DNA of 54,098 bases from Parcubacteria group bacterium GW2011_GWA2_43_13 (GTDB taxonomy: Bacteria > Patescibacteriota > Patescibacteriia > UBA9629 > GWA2-43-13), in the NCBI GenBank assembly GCA_000999025.1, contig LCFM01000007.1:1-54098 (forward strand). The letters are read 5' to 3'. The notes under the pieces were generated by a model, which saw only the letters and a list, made by a program, of their open reading frames with translations, was not told the origin of the DNA and made no database searches. The position numbers and the translations under genes are program-made. This document shows positions 67 through 9,941 of the stretch, in pieces; the first letter of the stretch is position 1, and every line of letters starts with the position of its first letter.

Positions 67-1869
67 ATGTTCAGAACTCATACGTGTGGAGAGCTTACAA
101 AAAGTGACCGAGGAAAATTAGTAACATTAGCCGGTTGGGTGCACGCGCGACGGGATCACGGTGGCGTGATTTTTGTTGATCTGCGCGATCGGTACGGATT
201 AACGCAAATCGTTGCGAATCCGGAAATGAATAAACAAGCGACGCAAGCATTAGATAAAGTACGGAGCGAGTTTGTTATCCAAATAAAAGGCGAGGTGATG
301 GCACGACCTGATGAAATGGTGAATAAAAAACTATCAACTGGTGAGGTTGAAGTGAAGGTGAATGAGGTGGTGATACTTTCAGAAGCCAAGACCCCGCCAT
401 TTGAAATTGATGAGCGGGAAAAAGAGAAAATAATCAATGAAGATACGCGGATAGAATACCGGTATCTTGATCTACGGCGAGATAAAAAAAGAGACACTAT
501 TATCATGCGCCACAAATTCGTCAAAGCGATACGGGATTTTTTGCATGAGCAAGATTTTATTGAGATTGAAACCCCGATTTTAACAAAAAGCACGCCAGAA
601 GGAGCAAGGGATTATATCGTGCCTTCCCGCCTGCATCCGGGAAAATTTTACGCGCTTCCGCAATCACCGCAACAGTATAAACAGTTATTGATGGTCGCGG
701 GCATGGACAAGTATTTCCAAATCGCGCGCTGTTTTCGGGATGAAGATCAGCGCGGAGACAGACAGCCTGAATTTACGCAATTGGATATGGAGATGTCGTT
801 TGTGGAAAGGGATGACGTGTTAGCATTGGCAGAAAACCTATTTACCACGGTGATTAAACAACTCTATCCTCATAAAAAGTTTTTACAAGAGCCATGGCCA
901 CGAATTCCGTATGAAGAAGTGATGCTTAAATATGGCATTGATAAACCGGATTTGCGGTTTCATGATATTATGGTGATTCAAGATATTTCTGATATGGTTG
1001 CGGATTGTGGGTTTGAAGTGTTTGCGAAAGCGGTGGCAAGTGGCGGGGTGATTCGCGCGATGGTTGCGCCATCAAAAAATAATAATCAATCACTTTCAAG
1101 AAGCCAGATTGATGAATTGACTGAAAAGGCAAAAAAAGAAGGCGCCAAGGGGCTTGCGTATATAGTGGTTGAGCAGGATGGCGTAAAATCTCCGATCACT
1201 AAATTTATCGGAGATGAGCTTGCGAAAAAAATTGTCAAAAAAATGTCAGCAGAAGCTGGTGATGTTATCTTTTTTGCGGCTGACACTAAATATATCGCGC
1301 AAAATGTGATGGGTGCTATTCGCAATGCATTGTTAAAGCAATTGGAGTTTGTTGAAAACGCGGATTCTGATTTGTTGGCGTTTGCGTTTGTGGTGGATTT
1401 TCCATTGTTTGAGGAAGTGAAAAACGATGCCGGTTTCTACGCGCCGTCCCATCATATGTTCACCAGTCCTCGGCCCGAAGATGAACATCTGCTTGCCAAG
1501 GATCCGTTCAAAGTAAAGTCATGGCAATACGATATGATTTGCAATGGGTATGAGGTCGGAGGCGGAAGCATCAGGATTCATGATCAGGAATTGCAAAAAA
1601 AGATTTTTGAATTGATAGGGTTTACGGAACAACAGGTCGCGTATTTTGCGCATATGCTGACTGCGTTTTCCTATGGCGTTCCGCCGCATGGTGGCATGGC
1701 GCCTGGAATTGATCGGTTGGTGATGTTGCTTCAAAACGAGCCGAATATCCGCGAAGTGATGGCATTCCCCAAAAACCAGCGCGCGGAAGATCCGATGATG
1801 CACGCGCCATCAGAAGTAGACGACAAACAACTCAAAGAAGCGCATATTGAAGTGGGGAGTAGAAAATAA
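67..1869 (+). CDS. aspS: Aspartate--tRNA ligase (probably non-discriminating Asp/Asn)
   Basis: RTHTCGEL, RRDHGG, YRYLDLRR, STPEGARD, LPQSPQ, CFRDED, GGSIRIH, PPHGG motifs; His in RDHGG is typical of the non-discriminating form. Confidence 0.97.
   Translation: MFRTHTCGELTKSDRGKLVTLAGWVHARRDHGGVIFVDLRDRYGLTQIVANPEMNKQATQALDKVRSEFVIQIKGEVMARPDEMVNKKLSTGEVEVKVNEVVILSEAKTPPFEIDEREKEKIINEDTRIEYRYLDLRRDKKRDTIIMRHKFVKAIRDFLHEQDFIEIETPILTKSTPEGARDYIVPSRLHPGKFYALPQSPQQYKQLLMVAGMDKYFQIARCFRDEDQRGDRQPEFTQLDMEMSFVERDDVLALAENLFTTVIKQLYPHKKFLQEPWPRIPYEEVMLKYGIDKPDLRFHDIMVIQDISDMVADCGFEVFAKAVASGGVIRAMVAPSKNNNQSLSRSQIDELTEKAKKEGAKGLAYIVVEQDGVKSPITKFIGDELAKKIVKKMSAEAGDVIFFAADTKYIAQNVMGAIRNALLKQLEFVENADSDLLAFAFVVDFPLFEEVKNDAGFYAPSHHMFTSPRPEDEHLLAKDPFKVKSWQYDMICNGYEVGGGSIRIHDQELQKKIFELIGFTEQQVAYFAHMLTAFSYGVPPHGGMAPGIDRLVMLLQNEPNIREVMAFPKNQRAEDPMMHAPSEVDDKQLKEAHIEVGSRK
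1820..1848 (+). repeat. 29-bp direct repeat, copy 1 (aspS 3' end); copy 2 at 3700..3728
   Basis: ACGACAAACAACTCAAAGAAGCGCATATT vs ACGACAAACAACTTAAAGAAGCGCATATT, one synonymous mismatch. Confidence 0.9.
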
Positions 1870-1882
1870 TAGCTCTAATGTT

Positions 1883-3694
1883 ATGGGACCAGAATTTAAG
1901 TCATCCGTTGGTTCTGAAAAACAGAATCAGGACTATAGAGAGTTTTGGGATACATTTGATCCGGCCTCCTTTGACATAAACACGATGTTAGATGTCCCGC
2001 CAGCATTACATAACGAGATTGCGATAAGGTTGATTGAGAGTGGGTGTGGTGAGGCAGTTGCTTATAATCTGGAAAAGTTTGAAGGATTGGATCATCCAGC
2101 TATCGCGAGGAGGTTGATTGAGAGTGGGGGTGGTGCTGCAGTTGCTTATAATCTGGGAAAGTTTGAAGGATTGGATCATCCAGCTATCGCGAGGAGGTTG
2201 ATTGAGAGTGGGCATGGTTATGCAGTTGCTGTTAATCTGGAAAAGTTTGAAGGATTAGATCATCCAGCTATCGCGATGAGGTTGATTGAGCGTGGGTATG
2301 GTGATGCAGTTGCTTATAATCTGGGAAAGTTTAAAGGATTGAATCATCCAGATATCGCGATGAAGTTGATTGAGGGTGGGCGTGGTGATGCAGTTGCTGA
2401 TAATCTGGAGAAGTTTGAAGGATTGGATCATCCAGATATCGCGATGAGGTTGATTGAGAGTGGGCATGGTGCTGCAGTTGCTTATAATCTGGGAAAGTTT
2501 GAAGGATTGAATCATCCAGATATCGCGATGAGGTTGATTGAGAGTGGGTGTGGTCGTGCAGTTGCTCATAATCTGGAAAAGTTTGAAGGATTGAATCAAG
2601 GTATCGCGATGAGGTTGATTGAGAGTGGGTATGGTCGTGCAGTTGCTGTTAATCTGTACAAGTTTTCCATTAAAGATGTGGATATTTTGAGAACCGGATT
2701 TGAGTTTTTAGCTAGAGATATTATACACAAGAGCTGGGCTGAATTATCCGTGGATAAGAAGAAATTAGTATTTGGAGTATGGGTACGATCACAATTCTCT
2801 GATCAATTTCATTTGGAGAATCATTCAACCGACGCGTGGCGTGATTTTCTAACACAAGAAGAGATTTTTGATGACACGACATGGGCGGCATTCCTTAAGA
2901 ACATTGGCGATATCCGCACAGAAATTCAATCTGTAGGCACGCAGACACCGCTGGATACTAATCAAGTTTCAGTAGGTATTGATTTTGAGCCAGCGATCAA
3001 TATCCTTCAAGAAGATGCATTTGAAAAACGATTTCAACCCATGACGGAGAGCAGTGAGATAGAACGTGTTATTCGATGCTGGGAAGGGGTAACCCATCTG
3101 TTGTGCAAGAAATACAGATTAATACCAAAGGGAATATACGATAGTGTGCATTTGCATTTTGGGTTAAGAAAATGGCAACAGCAAGAAGTAATAAGCCATG
3201 TAGCAGAAATTAAACGGTTGATGAGCTATATTGATGTAATCTATAACACCAAAGGCAGGATTCAGATGATGCAGAAAATTGAGGAAAGATTAGTGACCAT
3301 TGATACGGATGCTATGCAAGGTGGATATGATGCAAGACTCCAGCTTCGTCATATGAGTTTTATCGCTGGGACAGAGAGTAAATCATTTTTTATGAGTTTG
3401 ATAGAGTATATGAGAGCTGTGATTGCAAGCGACAACTATGGCGCGTTTAGAGAAGACGCGGATAGAATATATGGGTTGGTAGAAGAGATCATTCAAAATG
3501 AGATAGGGTATGGCGATGAAGACGCGAAACTTGACGGTGGCTGGGAGAAACGAGCGGTGAAGATGGGCAAAATTAAACCGAAGGAGGGGACATTGGCGTT
3601 TATCGTGTCTATAGAAGTGAGAGGTGTGGTATTGAATGAGATTCAAGAGGTACTCAATCGTCGTGTGCGCGTGTTGGCCAAAACACGGTCATAA
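1883..3694 (+). CDS. Hypothetical protein with ~8 tandem 28-aa helical repeats and an unassigned C-terminal domain
   Basis: Long ORF; first ATG at 1883 after the aspS stop; repeat consensus IAMRLIESGxGxAVAxNLxKFEGLxHPx. Confidence 0.85.
   Translation: MGPEFKSSVGSEKQNQDYREFWDTFDPASFDINTMLDVPPALHNEIAIRLIESGCGEAVAYNLEKFEGLDHPAIARRLIESGGGAAVAYNLGKFEGLDHPAIARRLIESGHGYAVAVNLEKFEGLDHPAIAMRLIERGYGDAVAYNLGKFKGLNHPDIAMKLIEGGRGDAVADNLEKFEGLDHPDIAMRLIESGHGAAVAYNLGKFEGLNHPDIAMRLIESGCGRAVAHNLEKFEGLNQGIAMRLIESGYGRAVAVNLYKFSIKDVDILRTGFEFLARDIIHKSWAELSVDKKKLVFGVWVRSQFSDQFHLENHSTDAWRDFLTQEEIFDDTTWAAFLKNIGDIRTEIQSVGTQTPLDTNQVSVGIDFEPAINILQEDAFEKRFQPMTESSEIERVIRCWEGVTHLLCKKYRLIPKGIYDSVHLHFGLRKWQQQEVISHVAEIKRLMSYIDVIYNTKGRIQMMQKIEERLVTIDTDAMQGGYDARLQLRHMSFIAGTESKSFFMSLIEYMRAVIASDNYGAFREDADRIYGLVEEIIQNEIGYGDEDAKLDGGWEKRAVKMGKIKPKEGTLAFIVSIEVRGVVLNEIQEVLNRRVRVLAKTRS
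2018..2665 (+). repeat. Intragenic 84-bp tandem repeat, 7 units plus a partial 8th
   Basis: Units start at 2018, 2102, 2186, 2270, 2354, 2438, 2522 and 2603; unit 7 is 81 bp. Confidence 0.95.
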
Positions 3695-3816: not shown

Positions 3817-4041
3817 ATGTCTACACTTTCTATCCCACTAACCCCCCAACTTGAGACGTTTATTGATGAGCAGGTGCGGCTCGGCAGGGCGGCAAATAAA
3901 GCAGATGTGGTACGCAAAGCGCTTCGGCTTTTTGCTGAAGAAGAAGCAGTGGCACAGGTTTTGAGAGCAGAGCAAGAAGTACGAGAAGGAAAATTATTGT
4001 CAGGCGATATTAAAGAGCTTGTAAAAAAGTTTTCTGATTAG
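3817..4041 (+). CDS. Ribbon-helix-helix antitoxin (ParD/CopG-like)
   Basis: MSTLSIPLTPQLETFIDEQV...ANKADVVRKALRL RHH pattern; directly upstream of a RelE-like gene. Confidence 0.8.
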   Translation: MSTLSIPLTPQLETFIDEQVRLGRAANKADVVRKALRLFAEEEAVAQVLRAEQEVREGKLLSGDIKELVKKFSD

Positions 4042-4051
4042 AATCCTTTGT

Positions 4052-4309
4052 ATGGATATTTTTTACACCCCGGCTTTTACACGGCAGTTTTCCTCGCTTG
4101 AGTATGTACTCCAAGAAGAAGCCACTTTGAAAATTGAGCAATTTAAAGATCTTAAGAACCATCAACAGTTGAGAGTTCATAAGCTCAAGGGGCATCTTTC
4201 CGGACGATATAGTTTTTATGTGAATTATCGGTATAGAATAGTTTTTGTGTATCAAGGAAACGATGTGGCTATTTTGCTTGCGATTGGAGATCATGAAGTA
4301 TATACATAA
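4052..4309 (+). CDS. RelE/YafQ-family type II toxin
   Basis: YTPAFTRQF, LRVHKLKGHLSGRYSF, YRIVF, IGDHEVY. Confidence 0.85.
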   Translation: MDIFYTPAFTRQFSSLEYVLQEEATLKIEQFKDLKNHQQLRVHKLKGHLSGRYSFYVNYRYRIVFVYQGNDVAILLAIGDHEVYT

Positions 4310-4495: not shown

Positions 4496-4972
4496 GCGAC
4501 ACGAAATGCGCGAATACAACACACGAATGACACAAAAATAAACATATGCCAAAGATTATTTTCCCTGAATTGTCGTATAGAATTACTGGTATTTGTTTTA
4601 AAGTGCACAAGGAATTAGGACGATTTTGTTCAGAAATGCAATATGCAGACAAACTCGAAAAAATATTGCTTCAAGAAAAGATGCTGTATGTTAGAGAATG
4701 TGATATGAGAAAAATAGAGATGACAGCCGCTCGTGGAAATAGGGTCGATTTTTTAATAGAGGATAGTATTCTTTTAGATGTTAAAGCAAAAAAGTTCATT
4801 ACGAAAGAAGATTATATTCAGATGTTACGGTATTTGAAATGGGGAAAGAAGAAGTTAGGAGTGATTGTGAATTTTCGTCATACATATCTTAAGCCCAAGC
4901 GGGTGATTAATAACGAATTTGAATAAAACTCGTTTCGCGTCATTCGTGTGATTTTCGAGTTTTTAGCGTCGC
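4496..4972. repeat. Imperfect inverted repeats (4496-4537 and 4933-4972) enclosing the GxxExxY gene
   Basis: CACACGAATGAC (4520-4531) is the reverse complement of GTCATTCGTGTG (4939-4950); outer GCGAC/GTCGC also pair. Confidence 0.7.
4546..4926 (+). CDS. GxxExxY protein (PD-(D/E)XK-like fold)
   Basis: ELSYRITG..FKVHKELGRFCSEMQY, RVDFLIED..LDVK, GVIVNF. Confidence 0.9.
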   Translation: MPKIIFPELSYRITGICFKVHKELGRFCSEMQYADKLEKILLQEKMLYVRECDMRKIEMTAARGNRVDFLIEDSILLDVKAKKFITKEDYIQMLRYLKWGKKKLGVIVNFRHTYLKPKRVINNEFE

Positions 4973-4976
4973 TTAT

Positions 4977-5675
4977 ATGCATTCAGTAACACTTGAGCAA
5001 TTTGAAGGGCCGATGGATTTGTTGTTAAACATGATTGAGGGCAAGAAATTGGATATCAGCGATATATCGCTTGCTGATGTGTGCGATCAGTATGTTCACT
5101 ACATTGAGGCCCATACTCATGAAATCAGTCCTGATGAGTTGGCTGATTTTTTAGTGATTGCCTCGCGGTTGCTGATGCTGAAAGTGCGTCTGTTGTTGCC
5201 GTATTTGGTTCCAGAAGAGGAAGAAGATGAGGCCTCGCTTGAACAACAGTTGAAAATGTATAAATTGTATTATGATGCGGCGCGCGAGTTGGGAAACAGG
5301 GATAATGGCATGCCGATTATGTTCTTACGTTGTGCGCCTCGTATGCCGATTCATAAAGAATTCAAGCCGGATGAACGTATTACGCTTGATTTTTTGGCAC
5401 TGACATGTGAACATCTTATTAACCATCTGCCGTTTATTCGTCTTCCTCAACAGATTTTGAAAAAAGGATTGAATATAAAACAGCGCATAGAGGATTTGCG
5501 CGCGTTACTTTCAACGATTAAAAAAGAGGTGTCATTCAGTCATATCACGAAACGAGCAGAGAATAAATTGGATATTATTATTTTTTTTATCGCGCTTCTT
5601 GAGTTAGTAAAACAGCAAGAAGTTCATTTGACGCAAGAAACGGTATTTGAGGAGATTACTATTATTCGGCGCTAA
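4977..5675 (+). CDS. scpA: Segregation and condensation protein A
   Basis: FEGPMDLLL, LADFLVIASRLLMLK, FIALLELVK. Confidence 0.93.
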   Translation: MHSVTLEQFEGPMDLLLNMIEGKKLDISDISLADVCDQYVHYIEAHTHEISPDELADFLVIASRLLMLKVRLLLPYLVPEEEEDEASLEQQLKMYKLYYDAARELGNRDNGMPIMFLRCAPRMPIHKEFKPDERITLDFLALTCEHLINHLPFIRLPQQILKKGLNIKQRIEDLRALLSTIKKEVSFSHITKRAENKLDIIIFFIALLELVKQQEVHLTQETVFEEITIIRR

Positions 5676-5694
5676 AAGATTGTTGTTATTTTCT

Positions 5695-6240
5695 ATGAAT
5701 GCAAAATTAGTCATTGAAGCGTTGTTGTTTGTGGCCGGAAAGCCATTGTCATATAAAAAGTGCGGATCGATCCTGTCTATCTCTGCGAATGATGTTAAAA
5801 AGATTATCAAAGAACTTCAAACGGAATATTACGATGCAAAACGGGGCATGGCGATTATTACCACAGAGATGGAATGCCAGATGACAACAGCACCAGACGT
5901 GGCTGATGTTGTGCAAGAATTTTTTTCTGCGGAACAAGAAACGAAATTGACACCACCATCACTTGAAGCATTAACAGTGATTGCGTATCGCGGACCAATG
6001 ACAAAGCAGGAGTTGGAATATATTCGAGGGGTCAACTGCTCGCTTATTCTTCGCAATCTTTTAATTCGCGGATTTATTGATGAGCGTGTTGATGAAAAAA
6101 TCGGACTATCAGTTTATTCTGTTACGCTTGATTTTTTAAGTTATATGGGAGTTGCGGACGTGTCGGCATTGCCACGGTATGAGGAACTTTCTCATCATCC
6201 TGATTTGGAAGACTTTTTAGCGCAACAGGGTGATATGTAA
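5695..6240 (+). CDS. scpB: Segregation and condensation protein B
   Basis: IEALLFVAGKP, LEALTVIAYRGP, IRGVN, FLSYMG; follows scpA. Confidence 0.93.
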   Translation: MNAKLVIEALLFVAGKPLSYKKCGSILSISANDVKKIIKELQTEYYDAKRGMAIITTEMECQMTTAPDVADVVQEFFSAEQETKLTPPSLEALTVIAYRGPMTKQELEYIRGVNCSLILRNLLIRGFIDERVDEKIGLSVYSVTLDFLSYMGVADVSALPRYEELSHHPDLEDFLAQQGDM

Positions 6241-9023: not shown

Positions 9024-9099
<76 letters not shown>

Positions 9100-9139
9100 T
9101 AGTAAAAAATTCGAAATCAAAGTCAGGAAATAGTGGAGA

Positions 9140-9238
9140 CAAAACGAAATGTTTCATTTCGTTTTGAGAGGAGGAAGGTATGCAAGCTGAAGTTTTTGAG
9201 TGAACTCAAAAACGGAAGCTGGGATACACTTCCGACGA
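9140..9238 (+). repeat. Structured ~100-nt element, copy 1, directly 5' of tRNA-Tyr
   Basis: Near-identical to 9363..9463; hairpins CAAAACGAAATG/CATTTCGTTTTG and GTTTTTGAG/CTCAAAAAC. Confidence 0.85.
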
Positions 9239-9322
9239 GGGTGGGTACTCAAGCGGTCAACGAGGGCAGACTGTAAATCTGCTGGCCTCCGGCCTCCATA
9301 GGTTCGAATCCTATCCCACCCA
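9239..9322 (+). tRNA. trnY: tRNA-Tyr(GTA)
   Basis: GGGTGGG/CCCACCC acceptor stem; GCAGA-CTGTAAA-TCTGC anticodon arm; long variable arm; CCA not encoded. Confidence 0.95.
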
Positions 9323-9362
9323 GTACATTACATTCGACATTCGAAGCACGAAACAGTCAAAA

Positions 9363-9463
9363 CAAAATGAAATGCTTGCATTTCGTTTTGAGAGGAGGAA
9401 GGTATGCAAGCTGGAGTTTTTGAGTTCACTCAAAAACGGAAGCTGAAATACTCTTCTGACGAG
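9363..9463 (+). repeat. Structured ~100-nt element, copy 2, directly 5' of tRNA-Thr(TGT)
   Basis: Near-identical to 9140..9238. Confidence 0.85.
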
Positions 9464-9464
9464 A

Positions 9465-9537
9465 GCCACCTTAGCTCAGCTGGTAGAGCAACGGTTTTGT
9501 AAACCGTGGGTCCGCGGTTCGAGTCCGCGAGGTGGCT
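9465..9537 (+). tRNA. trnT: tRNA-Thr(TGT)
   Basis: GCCACCT/AGGTGGC acceptor stem; ACGGT-TTTGTAA-ACCGT anticodon arm; CCA not encoded. Confidence 0.95.
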
Positions 9538-9544
9538 TTGCGTT

Positions 9545-9579
9545 CCCGCTCCTTTCCAAGGAGAGGGGTAGGGTGAGGT
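9545..9579 (+). repeat. REP-like palindrome, family A
   Basis: CCCGCTCCTT tcc AAGGAGAGGG GTAGGGTGAGGT. Confidence 0.75.
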
Positions 9580-9613
9580 AATTTTTAATAATGATTTATT
9601 ACTATATAACTAT

Positions 9614-9769
9614 ATGTCCCAAGACAACATGATTAAGTTAGAGTGCACAAATTGCAAGCGGGTGAATTATCACAGTCACAAGAATAAGAAAACACTTAAA
9701 ACCCGGCTGGAAGTAAAAAAACACTGCAAGTATTGCAAAATGCACGTAATACACAAGGAAACAAAGTAA
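9614..9769 (+). CDS. rpmG: 50S ribosomal protein L33 (zinc-ribbon form); not in the ORF track because it is under 60 aa
   Basis: Translates to MSQDNMIKLECTNCKRVNYHSHKNKKTLKTRLEVKKHCKYCKMHVIHKETK; canonical position before tRNA-Trp. Confidence 0.95.
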   Translation: MSQDNMIKLECTNCKRVNYHSHKNKKTLKTRLEVKKHCKYCKMHVIHKETK

Positions 9770-9788
9770 TGTGCGACGCATCGTCGTT

Positions 9789-9823
9789 CCCTCTCCTTAA
9801 TAAGGAGAGGGTTAGGGTGAGGT
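9789..9823 (+). repeat. REP-like palindrome, family A
   Basis: CCCTCTCCTTA a TAAGGAGAGGG TTAGGGTGAGGT. Confidence 0.8.
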
Positions 9824-9867
9824 TTCCGTGCTTCGGGTTTTGAATTTTCCGCCCTTCGGGCGGGTGA

Positions 9868-9941
9868 GGGGGCGTAATTTAATGGTAGAATGCCGTTCTC
9901 CAAAAGCGGATGCGTAGGTTCGATTCCTACCGCCCCTGCCA
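9868..9941 (+). tRNA. trnW: tRNA-Trp(CCA)
   Basis: CCGTT-CTCCAAA-AGCGG anticodon arm; GGTTCGATTCC T-arm; encoded CCA. Confidence 0.93.

Follow-up and report, generated by a model that had tools for sequence, protein, structure and literature searches.

Focused variation at three codons of a 28-residue helical-repeat array in a Parcubacteria bacterium

Introduction

HEAT-like and armadillo (ARM) proteins, among them the PP2A A subunit, importin beta, Escherichia coli YibA, and the designed alphaRep and armadillo proteins, are elongated solenoids of stacked helix-turn-helix units, and the natural HEAT-like families behind the alphaRep libraries likewise vary mainly at a small number of second-helix positions. 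TAL effector (TALE) repeats are near-identical tandem DNA units that differ mainly at a few fixed positions, and concerted evolution is a known pattern of TALE arrays. Here, we describe a tandem array of 28-residue repeats that resembles the first kind, in a generic way, in its predicted stacked fold and the second in its DNA. The array is part of a 603-residue protein encoded in a 54,098-nucleotide window, that is, the whole stretch of DNA that was analyzed, from Parcubacteria group bacterium GW2011_GWA2_43_13 (contig LCFM01000007.1, positions 1 to 54,098; all window coordinates are on the forward strand).

A third kind of system, the diversity-generating retroelement (DGR), shares with the array variation at the first two positions of codons and a conserved third base. 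DGRs have been reported in bacteria of the candidate phyla radiation (CPR), according to passages of published work (PMC8144416). The same passages state that misincorporation by DGR reverse transcriptases (RTs) falls on template adenines and occurs in about equal proportions, that at least 75% of the mismatches between template and variable region face adenines, and that DGR variable regions lie systematically in C-type lectin folds (PMC8144416). An earlier note on this DNA had proposed that the array is diversified by a DGR with a remote template or that its variable residues form a TALE/PPR-like recognition code. Our analyses instead favor a HEAT/ARM-like binding scaffold whose units evolve in concert and whose exposed residues are kept diverse by selection.

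Results

Variation between near-identical units is focused on three codons

Tandem Repeats Finder, applied to the first 6 kb of the window, reported a single array (2021-2665) with a period of 84 and 7.7 copies; matches amounted to 89%, indels were absent, and the score was 968. The array is in frame within an open reading frame (ORF) that starts with ATG at 1883 and ends with a stop codon at 3692-3694 (Table 1). In the register that begins at 2018, units 1 to 6 encode IAxRLIESGxGxAVAxNLxKFEGL(D/N)HPx, and their residues at positions 10, 12, and 16 are, in order, CEY, GAY, HYV, YDY, RDD, and HAY. Eight units of 84 bp had been counted previously; the number holds, but unit 7 has 81 bp and unit 8 is unit-like only to about codon 21.

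Most of what the earlier note had read from the codons was accurate. Its lists for units 1 to 8 are exact at codon 10 (TGT/GGT/CAT/TAT/CGT/CAT/TGT/TAT), codon 12 (GAG/GCT/TAT/GAT/GAT/GCT/CGT/CGT), and codon 16 (TAT/TAT/GTT/TAT/GAT/TAT/CAT/GTT). Synonymous change is indeed almost absent, with only three instances found (ATT/ATC at codon 1, GAA/GAG at codon 19, and TTG/TTA at codon 24), and T does occupy the third position nearly always (23 of the 24 variable codons).

When we compared 75 columns, namely, codons 1 to 25 of units 1 to 7 together with codons 1 to 18 of unit 8, 17 were variable and required at least 22 changes. Half of these minimal changes (11 of 22) fell in the nine columns that make up codons 10, 12, and 16, and the other 66 columns contained the remaining 11 (P = 1.5e-5, binomial test). 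Nei-Gojobori counts over units 1 to 7 gave a proportion of nonsynonymous differences (pN) of 0.49 and a proportion of synonymous differences (pS) of 0.045 at codons 10, 12, and 16 (pN/pS, 10.8), as opposed to a pN of 0.058 and a pS of 0.060 at the other 22 codons (pN/pS, 0.96). The focused variation at the three codons is thus real and far from chance.

The units also follow a period-two pattern, in that units 2, 4, and 6 combine G19 with Y16, whereas units 1, 3, 5, and 7 combine E19 with a variable residue 16. This alternation suggests growth by two-unit blocks. In addition, units 1 to 3 have A28 in common, and units 4 to 6 have D28 and M3 in common.

The same positions vary across a repeat family seen mostly in candidate phyla bacteria

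An exhaustive phmmer search over 1.84 billion representatives returned 776 proteins at E values up to 0.001, and stricter limits of 1e-10 and 1e-30 left 461 and 177, respectively; among the 150 matches listed, lengths ranged from 230 to 5,715 residues. A word-based search found 39 clusters besides that of the window protein, and the clusters that carried names were hypothetical proteins from Parcubacteria, Gracilibacteria, Adlerbacteria, and Magasanikbacteria. Among 60 related genomes from the same class, four encode proteins with the unit. The nearest other protein is 61% identical to that of the window at the protein level, whereas the units of the array are ~90% alike in DNA.

All source names seen were candidate-phyla lineages or "uncultured bacterium," save one: a family member on a 132,624-base contig labeled uncultured Gammaproteobacteria, which may reflect either a wrong label or a genuine presence outside the CPR. 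In several genomes (loci L025 to L031), the repeat gene is broken under translation table 11. For one of them (L026, 2192-3274), table 25, in which TGA encodes Gly, gives an open frame of 360 residues with six TGA codons read through, so the family is also present in lineages that use the Gracilibacteria/SR1 code.

We measured variability across the family on 135 complete, ungapped units of at least 15 bits, taken from 29 proteins outside the window protein's own cluster. The conserved scaffold comprised A2, L5, I6, G9, V14, N17, L18, K20, F21, G23, and L24. Entropy within proteins, taken as the mean over the 12 proteins that have at least five units, was highest at position 10 (1.95), position 16 (1.81), and position 12 (1.80), followed by position 13 (1.58) and position 8 (1.48). 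Given this family-wide peak, the hypervariable codons represent the variable surface of the family rather than a peculiarity of one locus. The pattern recurs in an independent young array (L008), in which pN and pS were 0.55 and 0.03 at codons 10, 12, and 16 and 0.09 and 0.10 elsewhere; the genome that carries it is 99% complete in five contigs and has no RT match.

These measurements bear on the possibility that codons 10, 12, and 16 are unconstrained and drift without any selection for diversity. As would be expected of exposed residues, conservation within the family is lowest at these three positions. The pN of 0.49, however, is about ten times the pS of 0.045 to 0.06, and neutral sites cannot outrun synonymous sites. 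The three codons are moreover confined to 21 bases between identical flanks, and recombination that homogenizes the flanks would be expected to erase neutral differences there as well. We therefore regard drift at tolerant positions as very unlikely.

The repeat matches no Pfam repeat model

The sole Pfam match of the repeat protein was to AccA (PF03255), at 32 bits (cut-off, 23), through two stretches of ~40 residues that fell on profile positions 166 to 206 of 310; the NCBIfam AccA equivalogs scored 30 to 33 bits against cut-offs of 319 to 406. We rejected an identity as the acetyl-CoA carboxylase carboxyltransferase alpha subunit, since the likeness is confined to short segments and reads as a chance resemblance of the unit. 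None of the HEAT, HEAT_2, HEAT_PBS, Arm, TAL, PPR, and PUF models of Pfam matched the repeat protein at E values up to 1, and no TAL, PUF, or PPR family was found in the 10 + 10 + 6 + 47 family members scanned. Searches of PDB sequences yielded nothing below an E value of 0.23, and PADLOC and PHROGs yielded 0 families.

In six family members (P0010, P0011, P0024, P0028, P0037, and P0057), weak summed Pfam matches of the repeat to helix-turn-helix models were seen, for example, to Sigma70_r4_2 positions 17 to 36 and to RecX_HTH1. Their probable source is the "E-I-A-x-K-L" helix start rather than DNA binding.

The literature that we searched, main texts without supplements, held no description of a 28-residue repeat of this kind. 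The unit defines an undescribed helical-repeat family that lacks a Pfam model.

The array is predicted to form a helical solenoid

AlphaFold2, given the single sequence of residues 1 to 268, returned an all-helical model (mean predicted local distance difference test score [pLDDT], 86.4; predicted template modeling score, 0.75). In this model, each unit consists of an ~10-residue helix that runs from position 26 to about position 7 of the next unit, a G-x-G loop at positions 8 to 10, a six-residue helix at positions 11 to 16, and a short turn at positions 18 to 20. On the second helix, a single turn separates positions 12 and 16, which are flanked by positions 13 and 19, and position 10 is in the loop before this helix. 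The earlier note had looked to structure prediction for a common face formed by the three residues; the solenoid is predicted, with position 10 in the loop and positions 12 and 16 on the second helix, and the common face would follow from helix periodicity. Its broader proposal of a helical-repeat recognition surface is supported in general form by this loop and second-helix placement, along with the family-wide variability.

Foldseek found no match to the repeat domain at an E value of 0.001; the best E value was 1.7e-2, with designed armadillo proteins leading the list. VIA-align placed 7xvk_A first among the chains considered here (Z score, 9.9; root mean square deviation, 7.9; 256 aligned), followed by the PP2A scaffold 3c5w_A (Z score, 8.8; root mean square deviation, 3.8 over 163 residues), YibA (1oyz_A; Z score, 8.3), an alphaRep protein (6fsq_A; Z score, 7.8), and a designer PPR chain (Z score, 6.5). 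The array nevertheless differs from HEAT and ARM proteins in that its unit has 28 residues rather than 31 to 47, no HEAT, ARM, or PBS-HEAT Pfam model matches it, and its units resemble one another in DNA much more closely than do those of typical HEAT/ARM proteins.

Third-position T can arise without a mutator

We counted the single-base steps open to the 24 observed codons. Only 16 of the 159 steps that change the amino acid without creating a stop fall at position 3 (10%); TAT and TGT run into stop codons, and fourfold degeneracy applies to four of the codons. Of 11 changes, 1.1 would be expected at position 3, and 1 was observed (GAG); even under equal thirds, the deficit at position 3 is weak (P = 0.075). 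Third-position T is therefore what such counts predict. The alleles at each site are joined by single-base steps, except CGT at codon 12, and in relatives with older arrays codons 10, 12, and 16 end in any base. Taken together, the counts and the older arrays indicate a young array in which ordinary point substitutions were kept only if they changed the residue. No mutator is thus needed to explain NNT codons in a repeat array that is young.

Targeted mutagenesis, whether by a DGR with a remote template or by an undescribed site-directed mutator that rewrites codons 10, 12, and 16 unit by unit, was also assessed in the genome assembly (27 contigs, 971,252 bases, 93.48% complete). A search of the assembly with Pfam RVT_1 (PF00078) gave 0 RT candidates at E values up to 1, while the same search, as a positive control, gave matches in 4 of 14 control genomes. 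A DNA search of the assembly with 2018-2665 matched only the array itself apart from chance matches of 14 to 17 bases, and with a blastn word size of 7, the best match outside the array reached 30 bits (E value, 0.56). The genome-wide search for a noncoding unit copy beside a DGR RT, which the earlier note had put forward as a check, thus came back empty on both counts.

The adenine rule was not followed either. Adenine is invariant across all units in 14 columns, including those of the AAT codon adjoining codon 16, and A is absent from the first position of all 24 variable codons (P = 0.001 if 25% is expected), although this test is a proxy that was run on the units without a template. The claim that most of the minor differences involve an A allele survives in weakened form: A occurs somewhere in 11 of the 17 variable columns, and 6 of the 17 never have it. 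The equal use of adenines described for DGR RTs, in the passages cited above, would predict otherwise (PMC8144416).

The focus of the variation, the conserved flanks, the preponderance of T-ending codons, the report of DGRs in CPR bacteria (in passages of PMC8144416), and the chance that a missing contig of the 93.5% complete genome holds the machinery all speak for targeted mutagenesis. Set against them are the missing RT and second unit copy, the invariant adenines, a predicted alpha-solenoid rather than the C-type lectin fold given for DGR targets (in the same passages; PMC8144416), relatives that vary at the same positions with any third base, and the constancy of the three sites among cluster proteins and metagenome contigs described below. 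The array is also all-helical and occupies residues 46 to 268 of 603 rather than the C terminus, in which it differs further from DGR targets. Targeted mutagenesis is extremely unlikely on this evidence, and the DGR reading was rejected for want of an RT or a template in the assembly, of adenine specificity, of a lectin fold, and of variation among contigs or cluster proteins.

RTs were also sought in four relatives that carry the repeat, and a match was obtained in only one (G008; RVT_1 E value, 2.4e-9). The RT-like ORF concerned (L023; G008:C20:19078-20966) is cut by the contig end, is open for 427 residues, has a long helical C-terminal part, and adjoins a probable DNA methyltransferase gene. 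This RT looks like a defense-type rather than a DGR enzyme.

The variable sites are constant across cluster proteins and metagenome contigs

The 90% cluster of the repeat protein comprises nine proteins; four of them have 575 residues, and the others have 603, 547, 498, 491, and 416. Members differ by the loss of whole units (the 575-, 547-, and 491-residue forms), two are cut at the N terminus, two (P0001 and P0003) have hybrid junction units, and one has a two-residue change near the C terminus. In all 54 unit instances of the nine proteins, the triplet at positions 10, 12, and 16 is identical to that of some unit in the window.

Among sequencing runs, 1700-3000 was present at no fewer than half of the sampled words in 12 runs, and the 15 runs with any of this region belong to nine studies of groundwater and soil metagenomes. 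Piece by piece, the array is covered by contigs from four runs that belong to four studies; these contigs show no other letter, and no deletion joints were reported in the four runs. Site variation confined to the variable codons, which the earlier note had suggested looking for within populations, is consequently not seen in these contigs, with the reservation that contigs drop rare variants.

We considered whether the eight units could be strain variants of a shorter array that were strung together by the assembler. Short-read metagenome assemblies cope badly with 84-bp repeats, unit number ranges from 4 to 8 among the cluster members, and the run contigs break at unit borders so that none spans the array. 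Nonetheless, a 274-base contig (2183-2456) spans units 3 to 5 without difference in all four runs, the remaining contig pieces cover every unit and junction in the order of the window in runs X1 to X3, and the 603-residue form was recorded from several sources and three contigs. An assembly artifact accordingly seems highly improbable.

The variable residues show no small vocabulary

Another possibility is that each unit recognizes a single monomer of a linear ligand, a nucleotide or a peptide residue, through positions 10, 12, and 16, as in TALE, PUF, or PPR proteins, with the target spelled out by unit order. Tandem helical units that vary at a few fixed positions would suit such a code, as would the place of designed armadillo proteins, which are modular binders of extended peptides, at the top of the Foldseek lists (albeit at E values of 1e-3 or weaker) and of a designer PPR chain among the structural matches. 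A modular code should nonetheless draw on a small vocabulary, and we counted 134 distinct triplets in 152 distinct units, the commonest occurring 3 times, and 84 distinct pairs at positions 12 and 16 in the same 152 units. Covariation was weak, as mutual information among positions 10, 12, and 16 lay 1.2 to 2.4 standard deviations above shuffled sets before any correction for relatedness. The repeat domain is acidic (isoelectric point, 5.72; 31 D+E versus 24 K+R), an indirect hint that speaks against a nucleic acid ligand, and no TAL, PPR, or PUF match emerged at E values up to 1.

The array is further set apart from TALE repeats by its unit length (28 versus 33 to 36 residues), by its three spaced variable positions in place of an adjacent pair, and by the taxa in which it occurs. 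It shares neither sequence similarity nor a restricted residue vocabulary with TAL, PUF, or PPR proteins. We conclude that the TALE/PPR-like code of the earlier note is not supported, given the diversity of triplets and the acidity of the domain, and that a code of this type is unlikely; the variable surface looks like those of open-ended protein-binding scaffolds rather than the small TALE/PUF/PPR alphabets. A published screen for TALE-like proteins covered, by the passages of it that bear on repeat length, only repeats of 30 to 43 residues and so could not have seen a family with a 28-residue unit (PMC5472282).

The C-terminal part and the gene neighborhood

For the part of the protein that follows the array, no relatives were detected outside its own 90% cluster. 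AlphaFold2 gave pLDDT values below 50 for residues 259 to 603, and PADLOC and PHROGs again yielded 0 families. A phmmer comparison of the C-terminal part with 45 family proteins gave a best E value of 0.025, and the Atlas search gave no feature match, with structural TM scores to transglycosylase clusters of at most 0.26, under the tool's bar. In other family members, nonrepeat parts that fall into at least four unrelated groups are joined to one or the other end of the repeat module. Scans of 73 members for partner domains gave scattered weak matches, among them GIPC1_GH2 in 5 of 47 members and GNAT in P0045 only.

TABLE 1 Features of the repeat gene and its surroundings in the window
Feature	Position	Strand	Remarks
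aspS	67..1869	+	Directly upstream of the repeat gene, same strand
Repeat-protein ORF	1883..3694	+	603 aa + stop
Parts of the repeat protein			N-terminal cap, residues 1-45; eight-unit repeat domain, residues 46-268; C-terminal part, residues 269-603
Units 1-6	2018..2521	+	84 bp each; starts at 2018, 2102, 2186, 2270, 2354, 2438
Unit 7	2522..2602	+	81 bp; shorter by one codon, with NQG at its end; positions 10/12/16, CRH
Unit 8	2603..2665	+	Degenerate last unit; fits the unit model over positions 1-21; positions 10/12/16, YRV
C-terminal 335 residues	2687..3691	+	Mostly helical in a low-confidence model
ParD-type antitoxin	3817-4038	+	PF03693, E value 1.4e-7
RelE/ParE-like toxin	4052-4306	+	PF05015, E value 5.6e-6; PF24732, E value 2e-5
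PD-(D/E)XK_3 nuclease-superfamily protein	4546-4923	+	E value 3.8e-19
scpA and scpB	4977-5672 and 5647-6237	+	Overlapping; after the PD-(D/E)XK_3 gene
Four tRNA genes	9024-9938	+	Within ~900 bases; sole Rfam matches in the window

The repeat ORF begins 13 bases past the stop codon of the upstream gene, which we take from its sequence to be aspS, encoding aspartyl-tRNA synthetase; no promoter-like or terminator-like site was found between the two. In a genome of the same family (G001), a 610-residue repeat protein likewise follows aspS (L010; G001:C44:1-3004). The aspS products of the two loci are 66% identical over 349 residues, and the C-terminal 350 residues of the L010 protein show no likeness to those of the window protein (BLASTP E value, 2.8). 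The position after aspS is thus conserved, but the effector part was either exchanged or has diverged too far to be recognized.

Just downstream, the ParD-type and RelE/ParE-like genes look like a type II toxin-antitoxin pair. The neighborhood gives no hint of a mobile element.

Discussion

We consider it likely that the array is a HEAT/ARM-like binding scaffold whose units are under concerted evolution, with diversifying selection at three exposed positions; among known kinds of system, it would be one of the alpha-solenoid repeat families, one that evolves in concert and has diversifying positions. The array would be the predicted binding domain of a cytoplasmic or nonclassically exported alpha-solenoid protein, its units stacked like those of HEAT and ARM proteins. 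Recent duplication, partly in two-unit blocks, may have created it, and unequal recombination between units may keep their DNA near-identical. Signs of such concerted evolution are the ~90% likeness of the units in DNA, the marker residues common to neighbors, the unit-loss forms, and the hybrid junctions. Selection would maintain residue differences at exposed positions 10, 12, and 16 and, more weakly, at positions 8, 13, and 19, such that every unit presents its own patch of a single continuous stripe that binds the ligand. The differences themselves would have arisen by single-base substitutions of NNT ancestors, with no part for a retroelement. Residues 10, 12, and 16 would then contact the ligand, which is more likely to be a protein or another non-nucleic-acid partner.

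Several observations weigh against this scaffold interpretation. The structural matches are generic, with best Z scores of 9.9 to 10.3, below the ~13 that the tool calls common for helical repeats, and the placement of positions 10, 12, and 16 along one face or stripe is deduced from the secondary-structure string and helix periodicity alone. A pN/pS ratio taken between units is a nonstandard test, both terms of which are distorted by interunit recombination. The forms that lack units could be assembly collapses rather than real recombinants, and the contig comparison shows a fixed majority sequence from which rare variants at codons 10, 12, and 16 may have been dropped. Finally, no consistent Pfam partner domain appeared in the 73 family members scanned, and a word-based search with the C-terminal part (residues 262 to 603) matched only its own 90% cluster.

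A more speculative idea, which we think improbable, is that the 28-residue unit is a natural modular CPR scaffold in which positions 10, 12, and 16 read successive elements of an extended ligand, for example, a peptide or polymer on the surface of a host or partner, and which is retargeted by the shuffling of units and by point changes. If this were true, the repeats would constitute a programmable binder family that has gone undescribed because it occurs almost wholly in uncultured lineages.

For the locus itself, a false DGR lead is removed. Returning to the favored HEAT/ARM-like scaffold, its compact 28-residue unit, which is confidently folded from a single sequence, could interest protein engineers. 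Attachment to other cells is the presumed lifestyle of CPR bacteria, and fast-evolving binding scaffolds such as the one described here are therefore candidates for partner recognition.

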